DNA of 62,545 bases, counting the filler. It is 5 parts of 5 records of this genome, joined end to end, with 100 filler letters (N's around TTAATTAATTAA, not from the genome) between each part and the next. Parts side by side here need not be neighbours in the genome. Positions count along the whole stretch, not along the records: positions 1 to 7,454 come from SRR31156797_8495; 4 more parts are not named here. One strand, 5' to 3'. Below are positions 1 through 61,333 of this stretch, piece after piece (position 1 is the first letter of the stretch; each line of letters opens with the position of its first letter). The notes under the pieces are model-generated. The model saw only the letters and a list, made by a program, of their open reading frames with translations. It was not told where the DNA came from and did no database searches. The translations under genes were made by a program, and so were the position numbers.

Positions 1-46
1 TCTAAAAAATATTCTATATATTTTTTAATTATTTACTTATTATTTA

Positions 47-79
47 ATTTTACTTTCGAAATGTATCATAGGTGTATCA
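47..79 (-). promoter_or_regulatory. Direct-repeat box promoter copy 1, pointing off the contig's left end
   Basis: Minus strand reads TGATACA-ccta-TGATACA-tttcgaaag-TAAAAT; same geometry as six other copies. Confidence 0.8.
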
Positions 80-378
80 GACGAAGAATCAATTTCTATA
101 AAAATCCTAAAAGACACAAAATAGATAAAAAAATCACTTAGATAATTTTTAATAAGTATACTTACAAAAATTATCTAAAAAAGTTAATAAAAATTGAAAA
201 AATAAAACTGTATATACAGGTAGAGCTCGAAAAAAATCAAAAAAGAGTTTTAAATTCCAAGTTTGTGTGATAAAATTTAAAAAGTATGAAAAGTATGTTT
301 TTGTTGGAAAAAATTTCAATTATAAAAAGTCTTGATTTTAAAGGCTAAAAAAGCAGAGATGATAACTTGTATCAAAAA

Positions 379-411
379 TGATACATTAATGATACACTTC
401 TGCGATATAAT
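379..411 (+). promoter_or_regulatory. Direct-repeat box promoter copy 2, upstream of the OmpR-type regulator
   Basis: TGATACA-ttaa-TGATACA-cttctgcga-TATAAT; extra inverted half-site TGTATCA at 368-374. Confidence 0.85.
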
Positions 412-451
412 ATAAAGAGTAGAAAAAGTATGAGTGGTTAAAAAAAACAAA

Positions 452-477
452 TATAGTCATTTATATAAATGACTATA
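452..477. repeat. Perfect 26-bp palindrome in the leader of the regulator gene
   Basis: TATAGTCATTTATATAAATGACTATA equals its own reverse complement. Confidence 0.8.
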
Positions 478-551
478 AAAAAGAGAATATGATTTTAGAC
501 GGGTAATGGGATTTAGATTAAAGTTGTTAATTTTTAAAATAGAGGTAATTA

Positions 552-2417
552 ATGAAGTTATTGCTTAATAGTAAAAATATAGACTTAAGAAGAAAATTAG
601 TAGAGAAATTAACCGAGAAATCAATAATTTTTGAATCTTACATAGAAAATGATACATTAAAAATTGCATTTGAGGAAAATTTAGATTTAATCATTGTTGA
701 AGGAATAGAGTTTAATGAAGCGAAACAATTAAGTAAAACAATACTTTCAGACTCATATAACTATTCAAATCCTTATATGATTTATATAGGGGATGGATCT
801 GTAAATGCAGTTGACGTTTATGATGCCGGCTATACGGATTTCATAAAAAAACCTATTACAGTAGATGAAATAGTTAAAAAAATTGAGATTTTTGCAAAGT
901 ATAAAAATATGTTTAAAAATTTATTATCATATCAGGAGATAAAAATCTACCTAAATGAGCAGGTAGTTTTTTATAATAGTGAGAAGATAAAACTCACAAA
1001 ACAGGAGTTTGAAGTTTTAGCGTTTTTTCTAAAAAAACAGGGAATACTTCTGACAAAACAGCGACTTTATGTTGGGATCTGGGGAGAATACAGCCCTAGC
1101 AGCAGAAAATTGGATTTATATATATCCAGATTAAAACAAAAATTTCCTGTGCTAAAAGATAATTTGATAAGCAAAAGAAATTTTGGCTATAAATTAAATA
1201 AATCTCAATATATTGAGCAGGAAAAATCTGAAGAAAATGGAAGTAATGCTTCAACAGCTGTTATTGGGATATTTGAATTGAATAAAAATATACTTGATGA
1301 ATCAACATTAAGAAAATATGAAGATGATCTAAGAAAACTAGATGAGATATTTAGAGAGTTTAACTTAGAAGTAATTAAATTTTATGGAAATAGAATTAAA
1401 TTTATCACTAAAAACAGTAATTTTTGCCTAAACGAACTTCGGTTTAAATTAAATGAAAATAAGCTTGAAACTAAACTAGTACTGGGTTATGGAAAAATCA
1501 CAAAAATAAACACGAGTTTAAGCAGTGAAATCATAAGCAGTACTTTAGAGAAAAATAAAAGTTTAATAAAACTTTGTCAAATGAATGAAATTTTATGTAC
1601 CAGTGAATTTTTAATAAAAAGAGATAATACAGATGAATTTCATAGTATAGGTTATTATGAATTAAGTCAGTTTGGAGTTCAGGAAGTATTTCAGTATAAA
1701 GATCAAAATATTAAGGAAAATGTTATCAGGCAATTAGAAACCTTTAAAACATATGTTGGAGAGATGTTTCTTGTAGAGGAGAATAAGCATTATTTTAAGT
1801 ATTCCAGTAGATTTAAAACGAAATTTTTATCAGATTTTGCTAAAAACAGTGAGATAAAACTATTTAGTATAGCGGTTACAGATAGCAGAGGAAGTAAAGA
1901 AACAGATCAAATTGAGAGAAAAAAGTTTGGCATAATTAGGAGTAATAAAGAGTTAGGACACAGTACTGAAGTTAGAAATTATGATTCTAAAAGAGTTGAT
2001 TTCATCTTTACACCATCTACTGAAATTAATGTAAAGGATTACGTTATAAGTGAAGTTTCCTTTACCACAAATGTTTGTGATTTTATGTTTAATAAACGAA
2101 CAAAAATGGAATCGATTTCAGTTTTTGGAGAGAAATATTATTTTGTAGATGGAACATACAATTTACATTCAGGAAAAAATATTTATGTAAAATTAGTATT
2201 TCCAATTGAATTTTATGACAAGATTAATTTTACTCCGGTTGTCATGAATAGAAAATCTGGAAATGTTAGAATTTTTGAGAAAGAAACATTGGAAATTATA
2301 GAGAAGAACAGCTGTAAAGTTAATCTAAAAGATAAAACTTTTGAAGTGGCAATGACTTTAAGAGATACGAAAAAAGAGAGAGCTTATGGAATAGCTTGGA
2401 ACCCCTATATTTATTAG
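552..2417 (+). CDS. Atypical OmpR/PhoB-family regulator: pseudo-receiver, winged helix, degenerate class III nucleotide-cyclase-like domain, unknown C-terminal domain
   Basis: REC-like DLIIVE...GYTDFIKKP; wHTH motifs LTKQEFEVLAFF, IWG, LDLYISRLKQK, KRNFGYKL; cyclase-like VIKFYGN, KLVLGYG, EILCTSEF; RBS AGAGGT. Confidence 0.75.
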   Translation: MKLLLNSKNIDLRRKLVEKLTEKSIIFESYIENDTLKIAFEENLDLIIVEGIEFNEAKQLSKTILSDSYNYSNPYMIYIGDGSVNAVDVYDAGYTDFIKKPITVDEIVKKIEIFAKYKNMFKNLLSYQEIKIYLNEQVVFYNSEKIKLTKQEFEVLAFFLKKQGILLTKQRLYVGIWGEYSPSSRKLDLYISRLKQKFPVLKDNLISKRNFGYKLNKSQYIEQEKSEENGSNASTAVIGIFELNKNILDESTLRKYEDDLRKLDEIFREFNLEVIKFYGNRIKFITKNSNFCLNELRFKLNENKLETKLVLGYGKITKINTSLSSEIISSTLEKNKSLIKLCQMNEILCTSEFLIKRDNTDEFHSIGYYELSQFGVQEVFQYKDQNIKENVIRQLETFKTYVGEMFLVEENKHYFKYSSRFKTKFLSDFAKNSEIKLFSIAVTDSRGSKETDQIERKKFGIIRSNKELGHSTEVRNYDSKRVDFIFTPSTEINVKDYVISEVSFTTNVCDFMFNKRTKMESISVFGEKYYFVDGTYNLHSGKNIYVKLVFPIEFYDKINFTPVVMNRKSGNVRIFEKETLEIIEKNSCKVNLKDKTFEVAMTLRDTKKERAYGIAWNPYIY

Positions 2418-2464
2418 AACTTCATTTTGAAATATCATATAAGTATTTATCACCTTTTAATTAA

Positions 2465-2639
2465 GGAAAGAGTATTACTAAGATTAATGAAGCAGTCTCA
2501 ATAGTGGTCAATAGCTCTACTGCAATAGAGGAGAAAACTACAAACATTCATGAAACAGTTGAGAAAACTTGCTGATATAAGTGAACAATCGCAAATGGTT
2601 CTTCAGTTAGAATCAGATATTAATTTCTTTAAAATATAA
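2465..2639 (+). pseudogene. Frameshifted C-terminal remnant of a methyl-accepting chemotaxis protein
   Basis: GKSITKINEAVSIVVNSSTAIEEKTTNIHETVEK, frameshift, then LADISEQSQMVLQLESDINFFKI*; FKI* end resembles MCP C-termini; no start codon. Confidence 0.5.
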
Positions 2640-2646
2640 AAAAATT

Positions 2647-2690
2647 AAACTCCCTCTTTGAAAATTTATCTTCAAAGTGGGAGTTTTTTT
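2647..2690. terminator. Probable bidirectional intrinsic terminator
   Basis: AAACTCCCTCTTTGAA...TTCAAAGTGGGAGTTT with T-tract, between convergent genes. Confidence 0.75.
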
Positions 2691-2709
2691 TAAAAGCTGA
2701 AAGCTTTTT

Positions 2710-4809
2710 CTATAATTTAAATTTACTTACATGAGCATTTAACTCTTCAGCTTTATCAGATAATCCAGCAGATGTTTTTGAAACAGCAGAACTATTATCA
2801 GCTACTGTCATACTAAGTTGATAAACACCTTCAGAGGTAGCAACTACCTCCTCTGTACTCGCTGCTTGTTCCTGAGTTATTGCCGCTACGTTTTGCGTCA
2901 TTTCACTTATTTGTGTTATATTATTCATCATTTGCTCAATAAGATTATTTGTATCCATAACTGCGGAAAAAATTCCGTTAAATGCCTTTGAGGCATGATC
3001 AACGATATTCATACTTTTATCAATAGCACTTTTATTCTCATTTGATTCTTTTACAGTGACATTAATAACTTCCTCGATATCCTGAACGACTTTTGCGATA
3101 TTATTTGCCTCATTAGTTGATTCTTCGGCAAGCTTTCGAATCTCATCAGCAACGACAGCAAAACCTCTTCCGGCTTCACCGGCTCTTGCAGCTTCGATAG
3201 CAGCGTTTAAGGCTAATAGATTAGTCTGATCAGCGATACTATTAATTACCTCAACAATATTCTTGATTTTACCTGCATAATTACCAACATTTCCTATTGA
3301 CTCAGCGAGCTTAATAACCGAAGATTCCATATCAGTCATAGTTTGACTGAGCTCTTTCATTCTTTCTTTACCAATATCACTAGCGTTAACTGTTTCGCCA
3401 CCTTTTTCTTTTGCTTTCTCGGCATTAAAACTTGATTCACTGACCTCAGAAGCAAGGCTATTCATGTTTTTTGCAACTTCACTGATTGAAGTTGTCATAT
3501 CAGTCATTGTTACTACTACATTTTTTAAGGAATCAGCTTGCTCATTTGATAAAGAAACCATCTCTTTAGCACTTTCAAGTGATGAACCTGAATCTTCATT
3601 AAGTTCTCGTGCACTTGCATTAAGAACTCTAACTAAATCAATGAAATTTTTATGCATAACACTTAGAGAATTATACATTTGACCAATTTCATCATTTTGT
3701 TTTTTTAATTTTTTGTCAGCTTCTGTTTCAATAATCTCTAGATTATAGTTTGCTAATTGATCTATTCTGTTAGATAGAATGCCAACTTGTTTTACAATTC
3801 TATTAATAATAATTAAAATAATAGTTACCGTTACAATAATTGCGCAAGAGATTCCAATTAACAGTGTCATTATACTAAATGAAATATCTGAATTTATTTC
3901 TTCCATTGCATTATCAGCATCACTTAATCCATCATCAAATAGAAGTGATGCAATTCCAAGGAGATCTTCTGAATCGCTTTCTATTTGTAATTTGATTGCA
4001 TCTATTTCATCATTTGCTTCAATTAAAGCATTAATATCCCCCTCATAACTTACTAAATCTTCAGCTATTGCTTCCAGATTTGCAAGGTCATCATCTTCAG
4101 TTGTAATAAGTTTTGCTTCTCCAAGTAATTTTAGTGCTTGTTGAAACTCCAGAAGTTTTTCATCAAGAAGTGAATAATCATCATTAACTTGAGATTCAAG
4201 TGCTGTACTCACTACATCACTTACGATATCACTTACTTCATCTACTGTAGTCATTCTTACATATTGGGTTTCAATATCAGAACCATCAGCATCTTTTTTG
4301 ATTAATTCAAAAAGCTCACTTTCCTGCTCTTCGGTAAATGAATCTAATACTTCAAATAACTCAGTTGCTCTTTGATCTGATTCCAGTCTATTAAGTTCAA
4401 TCTTATCAAAAGTCGTTTTTGATTGTGCCATTAAAGTTTCAAATGCTGCAACCTCCTCTTCGATCTCATCAATGAAATCATTAAGTTCAATAAGAGTAGG
4501 TTGCTCCTTAACAAGTACTTTGATTTGCTCAATCTCATTCTTCAAATTTAATAAATTTTCCTGTGCATCTGTTAAAAAAATCTCATCACCTGTAAAATTA
4601 TAACCTCTCATATCAAACATAAGATCAAAGGTATTTGACTCGATATCAGCTGCAGTTTGAATTACAGATAAGTAGGCCTCCTCCATAACATCTGCAGATG
4701 AATTTACTTGTTCTAAATAGATATAGGTAGTTACAGTTGCACCTGTTAGAATAAGTGCACTTAATAAAATTGCAATTAATACCCTGGTTCTAAGCTTTAA
4801 ATTATTCAT
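2710..4809 (-). CDS. Methyl-accepting chemotaxis protein with large acidic helical sensor domain
   Basis: Two TM segments, HAMP-like region, signalling motif [48 protein letters not shown]. Confidence 0.95.
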
Positions 4810-5010
4810 ACATAATTCCTCCCCTTGTATATTTTATGTGTGGTAAAAAGATATTTTTTAGTTAAATATTCTAAAATTACAATATAAAACCTTAGAGTAA
4901 TAAAGTGTTCAAATTTATTTATTATCCTTTTAGCTTTTTCAGGCATTTATTTAGTTTACTTATTGATGAATAATTATGATGGCTTTAATATCTCACATAA
5001 CTCTATTCAT

Positions 5011-5043
5011 ATATTACTTTTAGTTTGTATCAATTGTGTATCA
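5011..5043 (-). promoter_or_regulatory. Direct-repeat box promoter copy 3, upstream of the MCP
   Basis: Minus strand TGATACA-caat-TGATACA-aactaaaag-TAATAT. Confidence 0.8.
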
Positions 5044-5157
5044 TGATCAAAATTTTATTATTTGATATTTTGATTTGGAGTAGAAAGCTCCGAGTTTTTA
5101 ATTATATAGAAGACATAATAAGTTAAAAAATTATAGAATTTATCAATAGTACCATTT

Positions 5158-5190
5158 TGATACCTTGATGATACAAGAGAAGACTATAAT
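5158..5190 (+). promoter_or_regulatory. Direct-repeat box promoter copy 4, upstream of the 179-aa ORF
   Basis: TGATACC-ttga-TGATACA-agagaagac-TATAAT; degenerate in-phase third unit TAGTACC at 5147 and downstream half-site at 5194-5200. Confidence 0.85.
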
Positions 5191-5237
5191 TAGTGATACA
5201 GGGAATTAATAAAACTGGAGAAGGTATTGAAGTGTAA

Positions 5238-5777
5238 ATGAACCAAAATTGGTCTGAACTTTTTTACTCAGGTATTATTGAAGATAACTCTACTAATATA
5301 GAGCAATTATCAATTACTAATAATGAGATTTCAAAACAAGTTGCTTCGATATTATCAGAGAATTTAATTGAGCTTGAGGAATTAGGAGAGTTAGAAAGGA
5401 AGGAAAAGTTGAAAAACAATTTTAATCTTGAAGAGTTATATATAACGAATATATTATTAGATTTGAGGGACAGACTTGAAGATAAAACTCAAATTATAAG
5501 AATTCATAATAAAAATAACAGCTTTCCATGTAAACTAAATAAAAAATGCAAAGAAACATTGGAGTTTAATATGGAGCTGCTATTAGTGATGAAAAAACTT
5601 TTATCTTTGGATCAATTTAAAGGAAATGAGATTGAAATTAGTACTAATGAATTTGTAGAAAATGCAAATTTATTAATTAAAATGGGTAAAGTTATATTGA
5701 ATGATACAGAAAATTTATTAGAAGAATTACAACTATCTGAAATCTCAAAATCGTTAAAATGTGATTTAGTTTTATAA
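5238..5777 (+). CDS. Hypothetical alpha-helical protein
   Basis: 179-aa ORF in AT-rich DNA, downstream of promoter copy 4; no family recognised. Confidence 0.65.
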   Translation: MNQNWSELFYSGIIEDNSTNIEQLSITNNEISKQVASILSENLIELEELGELERKEKLKNNFNLEELYITNILLDLRDRLEDKTQIIRIHNKNNSFPCKLNKKCKETLEFNMELLLVMKKLLSLDQFKGNEIEISTNEFVENANLLIKMGKVILNDTENLLEELQLSEISKSLKCDLVL

Positions 5778-5789
5778 AAAAATTTAGTA

Positions 5790-5822
5790 TGAAACTTATA
5801 TGATACAAAGTAATGATAATAT
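5790..5822 (+). promoter_or_regulatory. Direct-repeat box promoter copy 5, upstream of the single-domain receiver
   Basis: TGAAACT-tata-TGATACA-aagtaatga-TAATAT, with TGn extended -10. Confidence 0.65.
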
Positions 5823-6014
5823 ATTAATAAATTAGAAGAGATTCTGGAGAATAATATTAATATAACACAAAATCAAAATGTATTAAATGCCAGTAAAACA
5901 AATACAACAGATTATTACTTGAACCAATCAGCATTAACTATTAGAAATCAATATCTATATGAATATTTGAATGGAAGTAAAACTCTGTAAACTTAACAAG
6001 CTGGAAATTAGGAA

Positions 6015-6428
6015 GTGAAAAAAATGAAGAAAAAAATACTAATTATAGATGATAAATCTATGAATATAAAAGTTTTAAAAAGCATGCTTAAAATTAACTA
6101 TAATATGTTTGCTATTGCTGATAGTACAAAATCTATTGAAGCTATTAAAAAAATCAGACCGGATATGGTTTTATTAGATGTAAATATGTCAAAATTAAAT
6201 GGTCTTGAAGTGGCTAAACTCATTAAGAGTAATAAGGAATGTAAAGAAACACCTATTATATTCATATCTGCTGTAACAGATAAAAGAATAGTTGAAAAAG
6301 CTTTTAAATTAGGGGCAGTTGATTATATTTTTAAACCATTTTCAATTTCAAAAGTTATAGAAGCGATTGCCAGTAACATTGAGGCACAAGGCGAACTTGA
6401 TCTCTCATCGCCATTTCCAGATTTATAA
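6015..6428 (+). CDS. Single-domain CheY-like response regulator (start may be ATG 6024)
   Basis: ILIIDD, PDMVLLDVNM, PIIFIS, GAVDYIFKP; phosphorylation-site residues intact. Confidence 0.9.
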   Translation: MKKMKKKILIIDDKSMNIKVLKSMLKINYNMFAIADSTKSIEAIKKIRPDMVLLDVNMSKLNGLEVAKLIKSNKECKETPIIFISAVTDKRIVEKAFKLGAVDYIFKPFSISKVIEAIASNIEAQGELDLSSPFPDL

Positions 6429-6451
6429 AATTTATCAAATATTTACATGGA

Positions 6452-6484
6452 TGATACCTGAATGATACATTGTTGTGATAAACT
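6452..6484 (+). promoter_or_regulatory. Direct-repeat box promoter copy 6, upstream of a structured non-coding region
   Basis: TGATACC-tgaa-TGATACA-ttgttgtga-TAAACT, with TGn extended -10. Confidence 0.8.
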
Positions 6485-6511
6485 AAAACTATAATGAACG
6501 AATAAATCTAT

Positions 6512-6752
6512 AGCACTATACTTCACAAAATAAGTATTGGACACCAATGATTTTGTTTGAAAGTGCTGATATTTATAACGTTAATTATAGTTAGATTTAG
6601 ACAACCATTATAAATTGAAAAAAAGGAAAAAGGTATTTAATGAAGGGTAGTCAAATAGTAATATCCTGATCCCGAGTTAAAAAATGTTTTAACTCAAAAT
6701 ATTATACAAACCTAAAACTCCTATACCCTCATTAAAAACCTCCTTTTTTTCA
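6512..6752 (+). ncRNA. Candidate structured RNA or leader with two long hairpins
   Basis: Hairpin 6512-6567 (AGCACT..CAAAAT..ATTGG/CCAAT..ATTTTG..AGTGCT); rod 6616-6752 with outer arms 6616-6650 and 6721-6752 and apical GAGTTAAAA/TTTTAACTC. Confidence 0.4.
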
Positions 6753-6797
6753 GCAATAAATATATTATAAGAATTTTAATTAGTAAAGGAGTCTGTT

Positions 6798-7253
6798 TTG
6801 AGTAGTGTAAAGTTTAATATAGTTTTTTTTCTTTTAAGTTCTCTCTTGTTACTAGCATTAAAAGATAGTGTTGAGATTTCTCAAAGTAATAAAAAAATAT
6901 TAGTAACAACATATGAAATGATGATTTTTGAGAAAGCTGAATCTATAATGAATGAGTTATCTCGGATGAAGAGATATGAATCGAGCAAATCAATTTCCAG
7001 AAGAAAAAAAGAAGTTTTTAATAATTCTCTATTTATAATTAAAAATATAGATAGTCATGTAAAACTAAAAACGGAACTTTTTAATTTAAGACAAACAAGG
7101 GATGAGCTGAAACTGCAACTAACAAAATTAAAAAGTAGAAGAGGTATTTTTCTTATATTATTTATACTTGTGAGTATAATAATTATAAGTTTAAATCTAA
7201 TTAAAATCAAAACAGAAGAACTTGAAGAGATAAAGGTATATATTAATAATTGA
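6798..7253 (+). CDS. Hypothetical membrane protein, two TM segments flanking a coiled coil
   Basis: TTG start with RBS AAGGAG; hydrophobic N- and C-terminal segments; followed by terminator. Confidence 0.65.
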   Translation: MSSVKFNIVFFLLSSLLLLALKDSVEISQSNKKILVTTYEMMIFEKAESIMNELSRMKRYESSKSISRRKKEVFNNSLFIIKNIDSHVKLKTELFNLRQTRDELKLQLTKLKSRRGIFLILFILVSIIIISLNLIKIKTEELEEIKVYINN

Positions 7254-7281
7254 TGATTATAAAAAAATAAATAATAAGATT

Positions 7282-7315
7282 AAACTCGAGAATAAATAAT
7301 TTCTTGAGTTTTTTT
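7282..7315 (+). terminator. Intrinsic terminator
   Basis: AAACTCGAGAA...TTCTTGAGTTT followed by T-run. Confidence 0.7.
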
Positions 7316-7333
7316 AGTATATTAGGATGTTTC

Positions 7334-7366
7334 AGATACGCTCATGATACATACGCTGGGTAAAAT
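7334..7366 (+). promoter_or_regulatory. Direct-repeat box promoter copy 7, pointing off the contig's right end
   Basis: AGATACG-ctca-TGATACA-tacgctggg-TAAAAT. Confidence 0.7.
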
Positions 7367-7454
7367 ATATTATAGAGATAATTTTATTAAAAAATGCTCT
7401 TAAATACTAAAATTCTTGTATTAAAATGATGTGCGTAAATTTTGTCAAAATATA

Positions 7455-7554
7455 NNNNNNNNNNNNNNNNNNNNNNNNNNNNNNNNNNNNNNNNNNNNTT
7501 AATTAATTAANNNNNNNNNNNNNNNNNNNNNNNNNNNNNNNNNNNNNNNNNNNN
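7455..7554. other. Artificial contig spacer
   Basis: N44-TTAATTAATTAA-N44 (stops in all six frames); base composition changes across it. Confidence 0.98.
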
Positions 7555-28593: not shown

Positions 28594-28693
28594 NNNNNNN
28601 NNNNNNNNNNNNNNNNNNNNNNNNNNNNNNNNNNNNNTTAATTAATTAANNNNNNNNNNNNNNNNNNNNNNNNNNNNNNNNNNNNNNNNNNNN
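28594..28693. other. Artificial contig spacer
   Basis: N44-TTAATTAATTAA-N44. Confidence 0.98.
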
Positions 28694-36466: not shown

Positions 36467-36566
36467 NNNNNNNNNNNNNNNNNNNNNNNNNNNNNNNNNN
36501 NNNNNNNNNNTTAATTAATTAANNNNNNNNNNNNNNNNNNNNNNNNNNNNNNNNNNNNNNNNNNNN
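36467..36566. other. Artificial contig spacer
   Basis: N44-TTAATTAATTAA-N44. Confidence 0.98.
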
Positions 36567-44340: not shown

Positions 44341-44582
44341 AATAAGGCTGCCCCAAGATTGGAACAGCCCTCTTCCGCTTATGAAAAAGCTACTACCCGT
44401 TTGTTACTCAGGAATAAAATTACAACCTTTTCCCGAATTGACAAAAAAATAGTAATATTTATTTGAAAAAGATGTAATTACTTATTAATGGGTGATTTCG
44501 AGTTATTTGCGGCATTTGTTCGTTGTTCTATTCTCGTATTACACCTATTTTATTATTTTTACTGTGCTAAATTTTTTTGGGA

Positions 44583-45278
44583 ATGGTAGAAGCTAAAATT
44601 AGATGCATGATAGTGGACGACGAAGAGGTTGCCCGTGAGGTAATGTCAACCTATGTCAATAAAGTTCCCTATCTGGAGCTGGTTACCACTTGTCAGGATG
44701 CCATTGAAGCGCATGAGAGAATTACTCAGGAGCAAATTGATTTGATTTTTCTCGATATTGAAATGCCGGGACTTACTGGCATCGAGTTTTTAAAATCGGT
44801 AGCTCAAAAGCCAAAAGTTATTATTTGCTCAGCAAATAAAGATTATGCTGTTGAAGGATTTGATTTGGATGTGGATGACTTTATCCTAAAACCAGTTACT
44901 TTCGAGCGATTTTTAAAAGCCGTTGGGAAAATACGCACCGATAATAAAGATATGCAGGTAAAAGAGAACTATTTTTATGTAAATGAGAATAAAAGAATGG
45001 TGCGCGTGGAATTGGATAATATCATTTATATTGAAAGTTTGCGAGATTATGTACGTATTGTAACAACAAAAAAGAAAGTTATTACCCATCAACACCTTTC
45101 CGACTTCGAAGAAAAATTACCTTCCGATAAATTTATGAGAATCCATAGGTCAGTTATTGTAGCAGTGGATAAAATTCAGTCATTTACATCATCACTTATA
45201 GATGTGGGCGAAAAAGAGTTACCTGTTGGAAGAAATTATAAAGAGGAAGTACAAAATAAACTGAAGAAACTTCTCTAA
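44583..45278 (+). CDS. LytTR-family response regulator
   Basis: IVDDE, FLDIEMP, LKP, YIESLRDYV, FMRIHRS; ATG 44583. Confidence 0.95.
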   Translation: MVEAKIRCMIVDDEEVAREVMSTYVNKVPYLELVTTCQDAIEAHERITQEQIDLIFLDIEMPGLTGIEFLKSVAQKPKVIICSANKDYAVEGFDLDVDDFILKPVTFERFLKAVGKIRTDNKDMQVKENYFYVNENKRMVRVELDNIIYIESLRDYVRIVTTKKKVITHQHLSDFEEKLPSDKFMRIHRSVIVAVDKIQSFTSSLIDVGEKELPVGRNYKEEVQNKLKKLL

Positions 45279-48200
45279 TGAGAAAATGTATTTTTTGGGG
45301 GTTCATTTTTTTTATTTTCAATGTTAACCTTGCTTTTTCCCAGGGGCAATTATTTGTGCGTAATTATTTGCCTACGGACTATCCCGGACAAAACCAAAAC
45401 TGGGCTGTAAAAGTTGATTCCAATAATGTAGTTTGGTTTGCCAATCAGGATGGCGTAATGAGTTTTAATGGGAACCAGTGGAATATTATTCACACAAATC
45501 AGCACAATACGGTTCGCTCAATGAGTTTTAATCATAAAGGAGAACTTTATGTGGGTGGTATTAGTGATATTGGCAAACTCGAAACGGATAGTAGCGGACA
45601 ACAAATATATGTTTCATTAAAGGATAAACTTCCCCAGGAAATTGAGTTTACGGATGTTTGGAGCACACATTCCCTGATGGATACAACTATATTTATTACT
45701 GATAATTATTTGATAGCTTATTCCCAGGATACAGTAAATATTATACCTACTGATTATAACTATTTCTATCTGTCATTTAAAATTGATGAACATATCATTG
45801 TGCAACAAATTGGAGGTGGGTTGTTTAAGTACGAGAACGGAAACCTCAAATATATCAAAGGTAGTGAGAGTTTTACCCAATTAAGGCTTCATAATTTATT
45901 TCATTTTGCTAATAAAACTTATGCAGCTACAAAATACAATGGATTGTTTGAGGTTAAATTTGACGAGAATTATAATGAATTACAATACATTGAACCATTC
46001 AAAATAAAACCGGATCAAAATCTTGGCAGTCAGGTTTTATATCAGGCAAAACCCATTTGCAATAGTCTTTTAGGTTTAGCAACAACTCAGGGTGGTTTAT
46101 TTATTGTTGACAGTCTTGGCAATTTGGTTTATCATTTTAATACAGACAACCAGCTGATTACCGACGCAGTTTATGATTTTGCCTGTACAAAAAATGGAGC
46201 GCTTTGGTTAGGTCAGGATCTTGGACTTTCTTTGATAGAGTTAGGGATGCCGGTAGTTCATTATAATTATAAAACAGGAATAAAAGGCGCTGTAACTCAG
46301 ATTTATCCATTTAAAAAAAGGGTATTTGTAACTACAGGTTTTGGATTATATTGGTATGATCAGGATGCGCCATTTCATAAAAGAGTATTTCACCGTGTCG
46401 AAAATTTAAATACACAAGCCTGGGGAATGATTATGCTTGATGATGATCCATCTGAAATATATGTATATACTGCAGATGGCGTTTCTCGTATAAAAAATAA
46501 TCAAGCAATCCCGGTCTATGAGGAGACTGGTATTTATAGTTTATTACAATACTCTAAAAAACCGGATTACTTTTTTGGTGGAACTCGAAATGGCCTTGTA
46601 TTGATAAAAAAAGGAGAAAAGAAGTGGACAAAGGAGTATGATTTTACAGGTATTTCTCAACAAGTAAGAGATATTGCAGAAGATGAAGAAGGTAATGTTT
46701 GGGTTGCAGCAAATTTTAGAGGTTTTATACCCATTTCTCCATTGCAAATAGATGAACTTATTGAGCAAAATATTGCTCCTGTTTTAACTGTAAAGGATAC
46801 TACACATGGTTTGGCATCTCTGGGTCTCATAATGTTTCAGCCTGATTTTGAAGAACTATTATTTTATTCAGATCCGCATTTAATGACCTACGATTCAAAA
46901 AAGGATCGATTTGATAAAATGGAAATTATTTCTGCGGACAGTATTTTAAAAGATACGGCAATAGACCCTGTTGATTCTATTGTAATTGAAAATAACAGAA
47001 TTTTGTTGCCAGCTGATTCAATTAGCGATATTGATACCTTAATTTATAAACGATTACCTTTTGCAGTTTCCCATTTTGGATGGATTGATAGCACAGAAGT
47101 TTGGTTGGGAACGGAGAATGGGATTTATCATTATCAGCTCAACCAGAAAATAAATGATTTTGATTTTTTCAATATCGTGGTTAACCAAATTACAATAGGT
47201 AACGATTTAACCGTTTTTGTGAATAATCAAAATGAACCAACAGAGCTTAATCTTGATTACTCCCAAAATAGTATTTCAGTTATAGTAGGAGTGCCTTTTT
47301 ATTATGATATCCCTAATACAAATATAAGTTTCTATTTGGAGGGGTTTGATGATCAATTTGAACCCTGGCACAAACAGTTTAAGAAGTCTTATACAAACCT
47401 TCCAGCCGGCAAATACAGGTTATTTGTTAAAGCAAAAAATATATTCGGTTTTGAAACTTCCAAAGAGGTATTGGTTTTAGAAATAAAACCACCCCTGTAT
47501 TTAACGCCTTTTGCCTATTTAATTTATATCATTATCTGGGTTTTATTGATGTTTTGGGTGATTCGGGCACGCACAAAAGCTTTGAGTAAAAGTAGAGATA
47601 AACTTGAGAATGTTGTGCAGGAACGTACTCAGCAATTGCTGGAGCGTAATGAGGAAATAATGCAGGTGGCTGAAATATTGAAAAACAACAATAAAAAACT
47701 GGAGGAGCTATCCATTGTGGCAGAAAAAGCCGGTAATGCGGTGGCAATTTTCAATAAAGAAGGCAAGCTGGATTATTGCAATGTAGCATTTGAACAACTT
47801 TATGGGTATACCTGCAAAGAGTTTCGCGAGCAGAAAGGTGGCGATTTGCTGGAAAGCAGTGAATACCCGCATATTAGAAAAGCCTATGATGAGTGTTTGA
47901 GTAAAAAACAAACAGTGCAATATGAATATTTCACCTTGTCTAAAAATCACGAAGGCTTGTGGATTCATACTACCCTGACACCGGTTTTTGGTGATGAAGA
48001 TGAAATTGAGCAATTTATTGCCATTGATACCAATATTACGCAGCTGAAAAATGCAGAAGAAGAGGTGCGTTTTCAGAAAGAGGAGCTTGAGCGAAAAAGT
48101 AAAGAACTGGCAGAGAAAAACCAGGAATTAAGAAGACTATCAATTATTGCCAGGGAAACCGATAATGCTGTAATTCTTACCAATAGAGATGGCTCTTTAT

Positions 48201-49210
48201 TGTGGGTAAATGAGGGCTTTACCAGGCTATATGGCTACACTGTTAAAGATCTTTTACAGAAAGGGGATACTGTTTTTAATTTGAGCTCAAATGATGGTAT
48301 TAAAAATTACCTGAAGAATTGGCCCGAAGATAAAAGTTCAATAACGTATGAATCCCGAAATACGACTAAATCGGGTAAAAAGATTTGGGCGCAAACAACC
48401 CTAACACCTATTCGGAACGACAAAGGGTCAATAACTCAGATTATTGCCATTGATAGTGATATTACAGCTCTCAAAAAAGCAGAAGAACAGATTGAGAAAC
48501 AGAGAGATCAGCTTAAGTCGTTAAATGCCACAAAAGATAAATTTTTTAGCATCATTGGGCATGATTTGCGTAGTCCGTTTGGGAACTTTGTCAATATGAC
48601 CAACATTATTCTCCAAAACATTTCTACTGTCGACAGGGAAACGCTTCTGGATTATGTAAGTAAGCTTCACCGTAGTGCACAAAATTCCTATAATTTACTG
48701 GAAAACTTGCTTGACTGGGCACGCCATCAACAAGGGCGAATAAGGTTCTACCCCGATTTTGATGATGTAACAGCATTGGTTGAGGAAATGGCTGAGCTAC
48801 TGTTGCCATTGGCTGAGCGCAAAAATGTAGAACTAAAAGTTGTTTATGAAGATCCTGTATATGCTTATTTTGATGAGCACATGATAAAAACAGTTGTACG
48901 TAATTTGATGTTTAATGCGCTTAAATTTACACCATCTGGTGGTGCCATTACACTCTCATTTACGAAGGAAGATGGACTTGTAAAAATATTTGTAAAAGAT
49001 ACCGGAATCGGTATTTCGCAAGAGGCGCAAGAGAAAATTTTCCGTATGGACACCCACTTTTCAACCATGGGAACCGATAAAGAACGTGGAACAGGATTAG
49101 GATTAATGCTCAGTAAAGACTTTGTGGAGATGAACAACGGAACCATCGAAGTTGAAAGCGAACCGGGAGAAGGAAGTACATTTATAGTTACACTCCCGGG
49201 GAATAATTAG
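45278..49210 (+). CDS. Sensor histidine kinase: beta-propeller/Y_Y_Y ectodomain, two PAS, HisKA, HATPase
   Basis: YTNLPAGKY, TM, two PAS-PAC units, IIGHDLRSP, NALKFT, DTGIG, GTGLGL. Confidence 0.92.
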   Translation: MRKCIFWGFIFFIFNVNLAFSQGQLFVRNYLPTDYPGQNQNWAVKVDSNNVVWFANQDGVMSFNGNQWNIIHTNQHNTVRSMSFNHKGELYVGGISDIGKLETDSSGQQIYVSLKDKLPQEIEFTDVWSTHSLMDTTIFITDNYLIAYSQDTVNIIPTDYNYFYLSFKIDEHIIVQQIGGGLFKYENGNLKYIKGSESFTQLRLHNLFHFANKTYAATKYNGLFEVKFDENYNELQYIEPFKIKPDQNLGSQVLYQAKPICNSLLGLATTQGGLFIVDSLGNLVYHFNTDNQLITDAVYDFACTKNGALWLGQDLGLSLIELGMPVVHYNYKTGIKGAVTQIYPFKKRVFVTTGFGLYWYDQDAPFHKRVFHRVENLNTQAWGMIMLDDDPSEIYVYTADGVSRIKNNQAIPVYEETGIYSLLQYSKKPDYFFGGTRNGLVLIKKGEKKWTKEYDFTGISQQVRDIAEDEEGNVWVAANFRGFIPISPLQIDELIEQNIAPVLTVKDTTHGLASLGLIMFQPDFEELLFYSDPHLMTYDSKKDRFDKMEIISADSILKDTAIDPVDSIVIENNRILLPADSISDIDTLIYKRLPFAVSHFGWIDSTEVWLGTENGIYHYQLNQKINDFDFFNIVVNQITIGNDLTVFVNNQNEPTELNLDYSQNSISVIVGVPFYYDIPNTNISFYLEGFDDQFEPWHKQFKKSYTNLPAGKYRLFVKAKNIFGFETSKEVLVLEIKPPLYLTPFAYLIYIIIWVLLMFWVIRARTKALSKSRDKLENVVQERTQQLLERNEEIMQVAEILKNNNKKLEELSIVAEKAGNAVAIFNKEGKLDYCNVAFEQLYGYTCKEFREQKGGDLLESSEYPHIRKAYDECLSKKQTVQYEYFTLSKNHEGLWIHTTLTPVFGDEDEIEQFIAIDTNITQLKNAEEEVRFQKEELERKSKELAEKNQELRRLSIIARETDNAVILTNRDGSLLWVNEGFTRLYGYTVKDLLQKGDTVFNLSSNDGIKNYLKNWPEDKSSITYESRNTTKSGKKIWAQTTLTPIRNDKGSITQIIAIDSDITALKKAEEQIEKQRDQLKSLNATKDKFFSIIGHDLRSPFGNFVNMTNIILQNISTVDRETLLDYVSKLHRSAQNSYNLLENLLDWARHQQGRIRFYPDFDDVTALVEEMAELLLPLAERKNVELKVVYEDPVYAYFDEHMIKTVVRNLMFNALKFTPSGGAITLSFTKEDGLVKIFVKDTGIGISQEAQEKIFRMDTHFSTMGTDKERGTGLGLMLSKDFVEMNNGTIEVESEPGEGSTFIVTLPGNN

Positions 49211-55559: not shown

Positions 55560-55659
55560 NNNNNNNNNNNNNNNNNNNNNNNNNNNNNNNNNNNNNNNNN
55601 NNNTTAATTAATTAANNNNNNNNNNNNNNNNNNNNNNNNNNNNNNNNNNNNNNNNNNNN
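55560..55659. other. Artificial contig spacer
   Basis: N44-TTAATTAATTAA-N44. Confidence 0.98.
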
Positions 55660-58714: not shown

Positions 58715-61333
58715 CTATATTATTGTCGGGATATTTGCAACCGGGTCCTGATTTTGGGAGGCGGTATTTTCATCAAGTACTTTTCGAACCGTCTTTAACA
58801 AATGAGTCAATCGATACGGCTTGCGAATAAAATCCCTGGCGCCGAATTCCAGGGGATCTTCCGCTTCACGCGCCGCGGTGTACCCGCTGGCGATAACGAC
58901 ATTCACATTCGGATTCAAGGCTTTGAGTTTTTTAAGACACTTTCTCCCTCCCATGCCGGGCATGCCCAGGTCCATAAGAAAAAGATCTATATTCGCCTTT
59001 GATTCTTCGTATGCCGACAGGGCTGCTTCGCCGCTTGGGCAGGTTAAAACCTTATAGCCGTTTCTTTTCAGGATTTCAGCGGCGACTTCCCTTACGGCCT
59101 GTTCATCATCCACAACCATTATGGTTTCGGAGCCTCCGTTAAGCGGGTAATCTCCAGAGGCTTCGGATACTGTGGAAGCCTTATCGTCAATAGCCGGCAT
59201 ATAAACTTTAAAAGAGGCGCCGCTGCCGGGTTTGCTTTCGCAGGTTATATGCCCGCCGTGGTTTTTAACAAGCCCGTAAACCATGGCCAAGCCAAGTCCC
59301 GTTCCTTTGCCGACCTCCTTGGTTGTATAAAAGGGATCAAAAATATGTTCCATGGTTTGAGGATCAATACCCGGTCCGTCATCCGATATGTCCAAGCAAA
59401 CATAATCCCCGGGAGCGGCTTCCATGTTCAACCCGCAGTGTTCTTCATCCAGGACCGCTCTTTTGGTTTCTATTTTCAGATTGCCGCCTTCCGGCATGGC
59501 GTCACGGGCGTTGATGCACAGATTCATGATAATCTGTTCTATCTGGGCCGGGTCCGCATTTACACTCATATTGGAATTATCCAACCTGATATCAATGTTG
59601 ATCATTTTAGGGAATGTTCTTTTAAGCAGGCCGAACACCTGGCGAACTTCATTATTTACGTCCAAAGGTCGAAGTCTGCTTTCCAGCTTTCTGCTGAAAG
59701 TCAGAAGCTGCCTGATCAGTTGGGACGCCCTTTCCACAGCCCGTTCAATTCCCTTTAAAGCCCTTCTGTCAGCTTGTGATTTTTGACCGTCAAGCAGAAG
59801 TATTTGGGTATATCCTTCAACAGCTTGCAGTAAATTATTGAAATCGTGCGCTATACCGCCGGCAAGCGTTCCTACCGATTCCATTCTCTGGGCATGCTCC
59901 AGTTGGCTTCTAAGTTCTTTTTCCGTACTAATATCGACAATGAAGCATAAGATAGCCGACTCGCCATTATAGTCGATTAAAGTCGGATAGTTGATCACCG
60001 GGAATAATTCACCGTTTTTTTTCATACCGGTAAATTCGTGAAAGTGAGGAATGTCCAGGCCGGCGATACGATCCTGCTGCCTTTGTATAATCAGGTCCCG
60101 GTCTTTGGGTGCATATAGTAATTCAACCTGCAGATCGACTATCTCTTCAGCCCGGTCGTACCCGAAAATCCTCGTCAAGGCCGGATTGGCGTAAACATAT
60201 TTCCCGTTTTTATTAATCCGGATGCCGATTGGAGAAGATTCGATGATAAGTCTCATCTTTTCCTCGGAAGCGACAAGGGCTTCCTCGGTTTGCCTTCGAA
60301 CCTCTATTTCCCTGGCCATGTCCTTATTGGCCATCTCAAGCTTGCGACTCAATTCTTCCAGGTGAAGGGTTTGCCCGGCCAACCGGTTTACCTGATGGAT
60401 AATAAACTTTAAGATCACAACATCTAGAATCAGGCAGAAAAGAACAATGGCCAGCCAATAGTTCAAAGCCCGGTAAAAAGAAGCCAGGGCTTCCTTTTTG
60501 CTCTTTCCAAATACAACGATAAGCGGCAGATTACCCAGAGCCTTATAACCGACTATCAGCTTGTCCCTGTCCCAGGGAGAAGACGTCTCATATATTCCAC
60601 TGCCGGAAAACGGCAGATATTTTATAAAAAGAGGCAGATCGGGCATGGGTTGACCGATTGAATCGATTTTAAATGGGTAACTGGCCAGCAAGGTTGTATC
60701 TTCTATCAAAACCGCTCCGCGATCATTTCCGTCCGCGGCAACGGATGCGAAAAGGCCTGTAAAATAAAGCGGATCAATCAATGCTATTACAACGGCTGAA
60801 ATGTCGCCGTCATTATTTCTCACCGCCCTCGATAAAGGAACAACCGGAGAATCCCCGATGATCCCCCTAACAGGCCGCCCAATGTACAGGCCGGTTGTTT
60901 TATTGTTTTTTTGGTTTTCAAAGCAGGCCTGCAAGTTGATGGACTTGCACTTTAAGGCCTTTCCTCCATCCGTACTCAAAACAATCCGCCCTTCGGGGTC
61001 GGCGACAATCAGGCATTTCAAATGAGATAGTTTTTCAAGGTCCATCTCCATAACGCCTTTAAGAGTATACTGGTTTAACCCCTGAAGTTTAACCCTATAG
61101 GCGGAAGCCCTTAACAGGGCGTCGACGCCCTCAAGGGCCATTATTACGTGGTCGTGTAGAAAATCGGCGTTACTCTTCGCCTCATTTTTTGCATTTTTTA
61201 TACCGGTCCGGTATTCATAGTACAGGACAGACACAGATCCGGTAATTATGATTAATGCGAGGAAGACCCCGCCCATAAAAATCAATCTTTTTATAAATCG
61301 GGAACTATGGCCGGCGACAGGGGAGTAATGCAT
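58715..61333 (-). CDS. Hybrid sensor histidine kinase (Cache-like, PAS, HisKA, HATPase, REC)
   Basis: Two TMs, AGGIAHDFNNLL, NARDAM, FYTTK, GTGLGL, VVDDE..MDLGMP..KP. Confidence 0.93.
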   Translation of the reverse strand: MHYSPVAGHSSRFIKRLIFMGGVFLALIIITGSVSVLYYEYRTGIKNAKNEAKSNADFLHDHVIMALEGVDALLRASAYRVKLQGLNQYTLKGVMEMDLEKLSHLKCLIVADPEGRIVLSTDGGKALKCKSINLQACFENQKNNKTTGLYIGRPVRGIIGDSPVVPLSRAVRNNDGDISAVVIALIDPLYFTGLFASVAADGNDRGAVLIEDTTLLASYPFKIDSIGQPMPDLPLFIKYLPFSGSGIYETSSPWDRDKLIVGYKALGNLPLIVVFGKSKKEALASFYRALNYWLAIVLFCLILDVVILKFIIHQVNRLAGQTLHLEELSRKLEMANKDMAREIEVRRQTEEALVASEEKMRLIIESSPIGIRINKNGKYVYANPALTRIFGYDRAEEIVDLQVELLYAPKDRDLIIQRQQDRIAGLDIPHFHEFTGMKKNGELFPVINYPTLIDYNGESAILCFIVDISTEKELRSQLEHAQRMESVGTLAGGIAHDFNNLLQAVEGYTQILLLDGQKSQADRRALKGIERAVERASQLIRQLLTFSRKLESRLRPLDVNNEVRQVFGLLKRTFPKMINIDIRLDNSNMSVNADPAQIEQIIMNLCINARDAMPEGGNLKIETKRAVLDEEHCGLNMEAAPGDYVCLDISDDGPGIDPQTMEHIFDPFYTTKEVGKGTGLGLAMVYGLVKNHGGHITCESKPGSGASFKVYMPAIDDKASTVSEASGDYPLNGGSETIMVVDDEQAVREVAAEILKRNGYKVLTCPSGEAALSAYEESKANIDLFLMDLGMPGMGGRKCLKKLKALNPNVNVVIASGYTAAREAEDPLEFGARDFIRKPYRLTHLLKTVRKVLDENTASQNQDPVANIPTII

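Follow-up and report, generated by a model that had tools for sequence, protein, structure and literature searches.

A predicted phosphorylation-independent OmpR/PhoB-type regulator with an unusual C-terminal tail, and the TGATACA promoter boxes of its contig

The P0001 gene and its N-terminal half

The gene described here encodes a 621-residue regulator, called P0001, and lies on the first of five contigs that were joined end to end into one 62.5-kb stretch of DNA (the window), with runs of N around TTAATTAATTAA at 7455-7554, 28594-28693, 36467-36566 and 55560-55659. The five pieces have GC contents of 27, 54, 31, 36 and 49% and probably come from different organisms; all statements on the contig are valid only for positions 1..7454, the piece that carries P0001. 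The open reading frame (ORF) was found as initially annotated, with 621 amino acids (aa) from ATG to TAG, and its product consists of an altered receiver, a winged helix-turn-helix and a long tail (Table 1). From its sequence, P0001, a descendant of two-component response regulators, is probably a phosphorylation-independent activator that acts in the style of a pho-box regulator.

The first domain had been described as a receiver without an acidic pocket, with Glu50 at the phospho-Asp position and with the Lys-Pro pair kept, and this was borne out by a MAFFT alignment of P0001 with 20 canonical regulators linked to the DNA box described below and with the CheY-like protein of contig 1. The acidic pair is E/D-D, the phospho-acceptor is D and the Thr column holds T in 20/20 of the canonical regulators, whereas P0001 has S7-K8, E50 and I79 at these positions. 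K100-P101 is retained in P0001 as in all 20, and with K100 kept, four of the five positions of the catalytic quintet are replaced. In addition, a gap of seven residues directly after E50 shortens the beta3-alpha3 loop. These replacements and the shortened loop after the phospho-site make the earlier proposal of a phosphorylation-independent factor well supported, and the receiver is predicted, with the same good support, not to be phosphorylatable in the canonical way. P0001 has homology to regulator models over residues 1-216 and E50 in place of the phospho-Asp; recognisable receiver homology with the phospho-Asp replaced is how a passage of PMC12632262 defines a pseudo-receiver regulator.

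The degree of drift differs along the receiver. PF00072 (Response_reg), whose cut-off is 30.2 bits, was observed to reach 12.8 bits on P0001 and 16.3 bits when the N-terminal piece was used by itself, over residues 83-112 only. NCBIfam regulator models reach up to 64.3 bits, and full-length ones, such as the HprR model (1-219, E 4.4e-10), align P0001 from residue 1. Because a profile of the 20 box-linked regulators aligns residues 87-217 only (79.4 bits), the first two thirds of the receiver appear to have drifted beyond recognition while the alpha4-beta5-alpha5 part survives. This part is the usual dimer face of the OmpR/PhoB family.

The winged helix-turn-helix was recovered where it had been annotated, after the receiver. 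PF00486 (Trans_reg_C) matches residues 144-215 with 48.1 bits (cut-off 26.2, E 1.2e-12) over model positions 2-77 of 77. Sixty-four PDB sequences matched at E<=10 and the best 60 were examined; the significant ones are OmpR/PhoB-family regulators, where RegX3 (2oqr, E 3.5e-10) is the best chain.

Table 1. Features of contig 1 in order of position. Boxes are given with the -10 hexamer that follows them; nt, nucleotides.
Feature	Position	Strand	Evidence or sequence
Box and -10, off left contig end	47..79	-	TGATACA-ccta-TGATACA-N9-TAAAAT
P0001 own promoter	368..411	+	inverted TGTATCA 368-374, N4, TGATACA 379-385, N4, TGATACA 390-396, N9, TATAAT 406-411
P0001 regulator gene, 621 aa	552..2417	+	ATG start, TAG stop, GAGG ribosome-binding site 7 nt upstream
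Pseudo-receiver, residues 1-125	552..926	+	alignment; sub-cut-off Pfam Response_reg; NCBIfam regulator models from residue 1
OmpR/PhoB-type winged helix-turn-helix, residues 126-216	927..1199	+	PF00486, PDB regulators, profile of 20 box-linked regulators
Acidic and polar linker, residues 217-235	1200..1256	+	KSQYIEQEKSEENGSNAST
Middle domain, residues 236-400, possibly a class III cyclase-homology domain in degenerate form	1257..1751	+	Atlas neighbours
C-terminal domain, residues 401-621, without family or transmembrane segment, possibly beta-rich	1752..2414	+	maximum hydropathy 0.96
Hairpin and U-run between converging regulator and chemoreceptor genes	2647..2694	+	-21 kcal/mol, z -5.19, 0/200 shuffles as stable
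Methyl-accepting chemotaxis protein with CHASE3 sensor, putative target	2710..4809	-	PF00015 E 5.2e-38, PF05227 E 3.8e-10
Box and -10, before chemoreceptor gene	5011..5043	-	TGATACA-caat-TGATACA-N9-TAATAT
Box and -10, before 179-aa ORF	5158..5190	+	TGATACC-ttga-TGATACA-N9-TATAAT
179-aa protein without family match, putative target	5238..5777	+	Pfam and NCBIfam searches
Weaker box and -10, before CheY-like gene	5790..5822	+	TGAAACT-tata-TGATACA-N9-TAATAT
Single-domain receiver (CheY-like) with intact D/K quintet, putative target	6015..6428	+	PF00072 E 2.6e-25
Box and -10, 313 nt before 151-aa ORF	6452..6484	+	TGATACC-tgaa-TGATACA-N9-TAAACT
151-aa protein without family match, hydrophobic C-terminal stretch, putative target	6798..7253	+	Pfam and NCBIfam searches
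Terminator	7282-7311		upstream of box 7334..7366
Weaker box and -10 after terminator, off right contig end	7334..7366	+	AGATACG-ctca-TGATACA-N9-TAAAAT

The C-terminal tail

The tail of P0001 is certainly coding because its 397 C-terminal codons contain no stop, against 20-66 stops in the other five frames, and because GC is equal in the two halves of the gene (0.269 and 0.266). No alternative genetic code is needed to read the frame; it holds no in-frame TGA, and TAG, TAA and TGA were all seen as stops. The maximum hydropathy of the tail is 0.96 and no transmembrane stretch was found, and the tail is taken to be cytoplasmic.

Searches for relatives were made with residues 217/225-621 and with sub-fragments, with E<=10 as the threshold for Pfam and NCBIfam, where no family matched any sub-fragment. 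An exhaustive phmmer search of the tail against 1.84 billion representative proteins gave 0 matches at E<=0.001. No relatives were observed in a word-indexed protein search with residues 225-621, in a comparison of whole P0001 with proteins of near length, in one of residues 228-400 with shorter proteins (E<=10), or, for the tail, in GTDB genomes searched by back-translated peptides. Against plasmids, the 15 of 227 tblastn records listed were N-terminal matches only (24-28% identity), the middle domain alone gave one chance match, and megablast of contig 1 gave none; tblastn against phages was also without a match. An exact look-up of all five contig-1 proteins in a 15-billion-protein collection found 0 present. 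The architecture had been called unusual, and it is indeed uncommon in the sense that the sequence searches, which covered proteins of every length, gave no match to the C-terminal 397 residues. In the literature searched, no paper was met with the order receiver, winged helix, cyclase-like domain and unknown domain, and none that names the Trans_reg_C and Guanylate_cyc Pfam families together. Aspartate-less OmpR-type regulators and a pho-box-like mode of action are known already, and the unusual part of P0001 appears to be its tail, for which the searches made here gave neither a like architecture nor a relative.

The middle domain had been read as a dead class III adenylate/guanylate cyclase from the order of its motifs. 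The quoted strings are all present, as VIKFYGN (274-280), KLVLGYG (308-314), EILCTSEF (346-353), SIGYYEL (365-371) and VFQY (379-382), but no profile, NCBIfam or PDB match supports a cyclase fold. In the tentative register of that reading, Asn280 would stand at the second metal Asp position and N-x-A-x-R is absent. In the ESM Atlas, which compares protein-language-model features, 28 of the 30 best named neighbours of residues 228-400 belong to PF00211, and none comes from the far more numerous GGDEF clusters; the highest score is 0.93, and 149 of the 256 features are in common. With residues 225-621, a PF00211 cluster is found at rank 5 (score 0.88). These scores are to be read against a calibration in which shuffled proteins score >=0.9 in 4-10 of 100 cases and produce ten like-family hits one third of the time. 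The pseudo-cyclase proposal thus agrees with the Atlas neighbours but gains no support from profile hidden Markov models, and we treat it as a lead, not a result.

Structure prediction was of limited confidence. Single-sequence AlphaFold gave a predicted local distance difference test score (pLDDT) of 31 for whole P0001 and 50 for residues 230-405, and the two low-confidence models differ at the first element, where the whole-protein model has a strand (234-238) and the other a helix. A complex prediction with two copies of the middle domain scored 0.01, a 'no answer' that is evidence neither way. As for the last domain, which had been described as beta-rich, about 220 aa long and ending in YGIAW, strands were observed in the pLDDT 31 model only, and P0001 in fact ends in ...YGIAWNPYIY.

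Among 779 ORFs of the fetched loci (see below) and the window, 0 class III cyclases and one GGDEF protein were found. A fused, decayed kinase was also considered as the origin of the tail because a kinase gene follows every related regulator; this was rejected, as profiles of 20 such kinases and of 18 third-gene proteins give 0.3 and 0.1 bits on the tail.

TGATACA boxes and the regulators linked to them

The TGATACA repeat named in the initial annotation belongs to a wider pattern. The window has 18 copies of the heptamer where 7.4 are expected, and 14 of them lie in 1..7454. A scan for a composite box, consisting of two heptamers 11 bp apart with at most two mismatches in total and at most one in the second heptamer, found seven, all of them in contig 1 and none in the remaining four contigs, while 500 dinucleotide-preserving shuffles of contig 1 gave a mean of 0.09 and a maximum of 2. 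The layout is of the pho-box type, with direct heptamers in an 11-bp period, and TAnnnT was found exactly 9 nt after the second heptamer in 7/7 boxes, where the background is 3.8% per position. The -10 hexamers are TATAAT, TAATAT and TAAAAT, each found twice, and TAAACT, found once. The boxes were also picked up by an independent repeat finder, as its families D2, D3, I1, I5 and I18. Ordinary -35/-10 pairs show no enrichment, with 48 found where 49.3 were expected.

One box lies before P0001, one before each of the other contig-1 genes, and one faces outward at each contig end. The promoter of P0001 itself ends 140 nt before the start codon. The spacers between predicted -10 and start codon are long, at 140 (412-551, before P0001), 201 (4810-5010), 192 (5823-6014) and 313 nt (6485-6797); they have no Rfam match and could be leaders, small ORFs or small RNAs. 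Rfam gave 0 matches at gathering score over the whole window. Inside the P0001 coding region, a stretch of 24 nt at 637-660 is 83% identical to the operator at 366-389 and carries TGATACA at 650-656, which may be an internal site or chance. No TGATACA regulator box of this kind was met in the literature searched.

Public genomes were scanned with the DNA box alone (TGATACA-N4-TGATACA-N9-TAnnnT, one genome per species), which gave at least 121 loci, 80 of them with full flanks. With P0001 as query, tblastn matched 20 of the 121 box loci listed, in every case an OmpR-family gene that starts within about 210 nt of the box (L036, L055, L037, L059, L074, L039, L032, L076, L028, L019, L047, L024, L012, L049, L051, L042, L003, L004, L071 and L052, with the box near position 4000 in most). 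Because receiver matches were also observed beside the box in five short-flank loci and in two more full loci, the true count of box-linked regulators seems to be higher than 20. The best relative is 38.4% identical over residues 92-215 (84 bits), which is above any match from the protein searches. Fifteen of the 20 loci have the box directed into the regulator gene itself, and five have it directed away. Furthermore, L036 and L055, the two nearest relatives, have an inverted heptamer separated by four bases from the direct repeats downstream of it, and its register matches that of the inverted heptamer before P0001.

Since the box-linked regulators are the nearest relatives found, most of their boxes point into their own genes and the inverted heptamer is shared, we consider the box to be the site of a regulator subfamily of which P0001 is a putative diverged member, and its own promoter appears to keep the autoregulatory layout. 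The operons of these relatives encode a regulator of about 220 aa, a HAMP-HisKA-HATPase kinase of about 470 aa and a membrane protein of about 230-320 aa without a family, with divergent DUF6034 genes at some of them. They are hosted mostly by metagenome-assembled genomes of Lachnospiraceae and other Clostridia. Because none of the regulators reached an NCBIfam equivalog cut-off, the operons are themselves uncharacterised. The position of the box, as the -35 of the operon's own or a divergent promoter, would predict both the binding site and autoregulation of the clostridial operon. Not every box match in public genomes is a regulator site, since some form part of longer repeated elements or of tandem arrays with an 11-bp unit; L060 and L061 hold two boxes 3.4 kb apart with identical flanks, and L031, L090 and L101 hold TGATACACGGT tandem runs.

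Several other features of the window were noted. The hairpin between the converging regulator and chemoreceptor genes is preceded by an A-run and followed by a U-run, was overlooked by a simple terminator scan, and is likely to be a two-way terminator for both genes. Two overlapping short open frames lie at 2465-2639 (+), between the regulator stop and this hairpin; by eye they resembled the end of a chemoreceptor signalling domain, and this idea was dropped as BLASTP against the neighbouring chemoreceptor gave nothing relevant. It had also been stated that the contig holds no kinase, and none was found in 1..7454, but this is a weak point since the contig is only 7.4 kb long. Kinase genes elsewhere in the window (45278-49210 and 58715-61333) sit on other contigs. 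At 44577-49210 a LytTR response regulator adjoins a 1310-aa PAS/propeller kinase, and the contig of this pair encodes a Por_Secre_tail protein as well; 58715-61333 encodes an 872-aa dCache-PAS hybrid kinase; neither locus is related to P0001.

Interpretation and comparison with known systems

Beyond the domain calls, we infer the function of P0001 from sequence. The reading we prefer, with a probability of roughly 0.6, is that P0001 belongs to the OmpR/PhoB family as an orphan, aspartate-less regulator which is no longer phosphorylated. Two copies of it would, on balance, bind head to tail on the two TGATACA heptamers, which lie one helical turn (11 bp) apart. As 9 bp separate the end of the second heptamer from the -10 downstream, the box would sit in the place of the -35 element, and P0001 would bring in RNA polymerase to activate transcription, in the way that PhoB works at pho boxes. 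Its predicted targets are its own gene (positive autoregulation), the CHASE3 chemoreceptor, the CheY-like receiver, two small proteins and two off-contig units, a set which suggests the control of a chemosensory module. Glu50 and the retained alpha4-beta5-alpha5 face might favour a dimer that forms independently of phosphorylation, as in ChxR and other atypical regulators. A weaker step of the proposal is that control may have shifted from phosphorylation to the C-terminal 400 residues, by dimerisation or ligand binding, where a dead cyclase-homology domain would supply a built-in dimer or a nucleotide pocket and the last 220 residues may take the signal. In its fullest form, a response regulator would have been rebuilt as a one-component sensor-regulator with a dead phospho-switch, in which a pseudo-cyclase and a new beta-rich domain give dimerisation and nucleotide or small-molecule input and which drives local chemosensory genes via pho-box-like promoters; this complete scheme is speculative and on the doubtful side.

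Several observations speak against the DNA-binding part of the preferred reading. P0001 is identical to the box-linked consensus at only 8 of 16 positions of the recognition-helix region, and for this reason the same DNA specificity is not assured. In two of the seven boxes the first heptamer carries two mismatches. The gene assignments are provisional, because five of the seven boxes either face a contig end or are separated from the next start codon by 140-313 nt. In addition, the boxes could belong to a canonical paralogue encoded elsewhere in the genome. Such an owner would be a phosphorylatable regulator, orthologous to that of the clostridial regulator-kinase-membrane protein operons, and P0001 would then be merely a target, a competitor or decoy on the same sites, or a partner in non-activating mixed dimers. 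That every one of the 20 box-linked regulators is canonical, having a phospho-site D and a kinase gene next to it, fits this explanation, as does the departure of the recognition-helix region at the other eight positions, and in view of the short contig such a system could lie just outside. Yet P0001 is the only DNA-binding protein on the contig, the strongest box, with three heptamers and a perfect TATAAT, lies at its own promoter, and both the placement of the box before the regulator's own gene in 15/20 related loci and the kinship of these regulators with P0001 argue for P0001 itself, so that we regard a separate canonical owner as rather unlikely.

The tail raises two further alternatives. 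The long ORF might be an artefact or a decaying gene, produced by mis-assembly or by a recent fusion of a regulator to unrelated DNA, as might be suspected of a singleton on a short contig from a mixed assembly joined to unrelated contigs. This is very improbable in view of 397 stop-free codons in DNA of 27% GC where other frames have 20-66 stops, the equal GC of both halves, the lack of an internal start or ribosome-binding site at the junction, and the strong terminator after the gene. The identity of the middle domain is much more evenly balanced. We give a catalytically dead class III cyclase-homology domain close to an even chance. It is weakened by the lack of a PF00211 match at E<=10 on whole P0001, residues 225-400 or residues 225-621, by PDB sequence matches to the tail that are chance rows only, and by the 149 shared Atlas features, which fall below the 170 that the Atlas tool finds typical of true family members. 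The model of residues 230-405, at pLDDT 50, is of too low quality to weigh here; Foldseek found no PDB match for it at E<=0.001, and the best 50 rows contain no cyclase. Moreover, as P0001 is a singleton, conservation can check nothing. The C-terminal 400 residues may instead be unrelated to cyclases, and we place this a little below even odds. They would consist of one or two lineage-specific domains of a new or unrecognised fold, for example a ligand- or protein-binding module tied to the nearby chemoreceptor and CheY-like genes, and the motif order would have arisen by chance from the alpha/beta pattern of a protein rich in Ile, Lys and Asn. The absence of any family match, of PDB sequence relatives and of any hit among the 1.84 billion representatives is as expected here, as are the high Atlas scores of shuffled proteins, the low number of shared features and the disagreement of the two models on their first element. 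What counts against such an unrelated tail is that the family found by the Atlas is the one named beforehand in the initial annotation, though the two views are maybe not independent.

The preferred reading of P0001 as an aspartate-less activator can be set beside several known systems. The middle domain resembles the class III cyclase domain (PF00211) in its hydrophobic/Gly motif order and its Atlas neighbours, and differs from it in that no profile matches and neither the metal-binding Asp pair nor the Asn/Arg motif can be placed. Catalytically dead cyclase copies do exist, and the second site of pseudo-heterodimeric cyclases is one example. Should the middle domain be such a dead cyclase, transcription factors would join the known uses of pseudo-cyclase domains, and P0001 would be the first winged-helix regulator under pseudo-cyclase control, with a domain order unmet in the searches made here.

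The pho box of PhoB in E. coli consists of two 7-bp direct repeats in an 11-bp period, about 10 bp upstream of the -10, where it replaces the -35. The boxes of contig 1 have a like layout, with a gap of 9 bp, and differ in the heptamer, which is TGATACA. PhoB requires phosphorylation by PhoR, whereas P0001 is predicted to be unable to take a phosphoryl group. NCBIfam PhoB models give 50-64 bits on P0001, far below their cut-offs of 270-296. The seven candidate target promoters on one 7.4-kb fragment form a clean, testable set.

The clostridial box-linked operons share with P0001 the DNA-binding half (up to 38.4% identity, 79.4 bits), the box and, in the two nearest relatives, the inverted third heptamer. 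Their regulators keep the full phospho-acceptor set and a partner kinase, neither of which P0001 has on its contig, and the tail of P0001 is unrelated to their kinase (0.3 bits) and third protein (0.1 bits). The box ties P0001 to a two-component system that is widespread in gut and rumen Clostridia, and for that system too a binding site and autoregulation can now be predicted.

The closest functional parallels are found among aspartate-less regulators, of which one survey counted 609 of OmpR type, or about 2% of receiver-winged-helix proteins, with Glu as the commonest phospho-Asp replacement (26%) and with the Glu-bearing ChxR constitutively active, according to a section of PMC4395418. Many atypical regulators dimerise without phosphorylation, and how aspartate-less regulators are switched is called mostly unknown, in a section of PMC12632262. 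ChxR of Chlamydia trachomatis, HP1043, GlnR, NblR, RitR and CmrT combine, like P0001, a receiver in which the phospho-Asp is replaced (by Glu in ChxR) with an OmpR-type winged helix; ChxR and other members of this class are active without phosphorylation and ChxR binds direct repeats as a dimer, as stated in parts of PMC4395418, PMC12632262 and PMC12548384. Unlike the ChxR class, P0001 also has neither the acidic pair nor the Thr, and its beta3-alpha3 loop is shortened. Whereas ChxR-type regulators stop after the winged helix, at a length of about 220-250 aa, P0001 continues for about 400 more residues without relatives, and it therefore presents a natural case where an added C-terminal module may supply the missing input.

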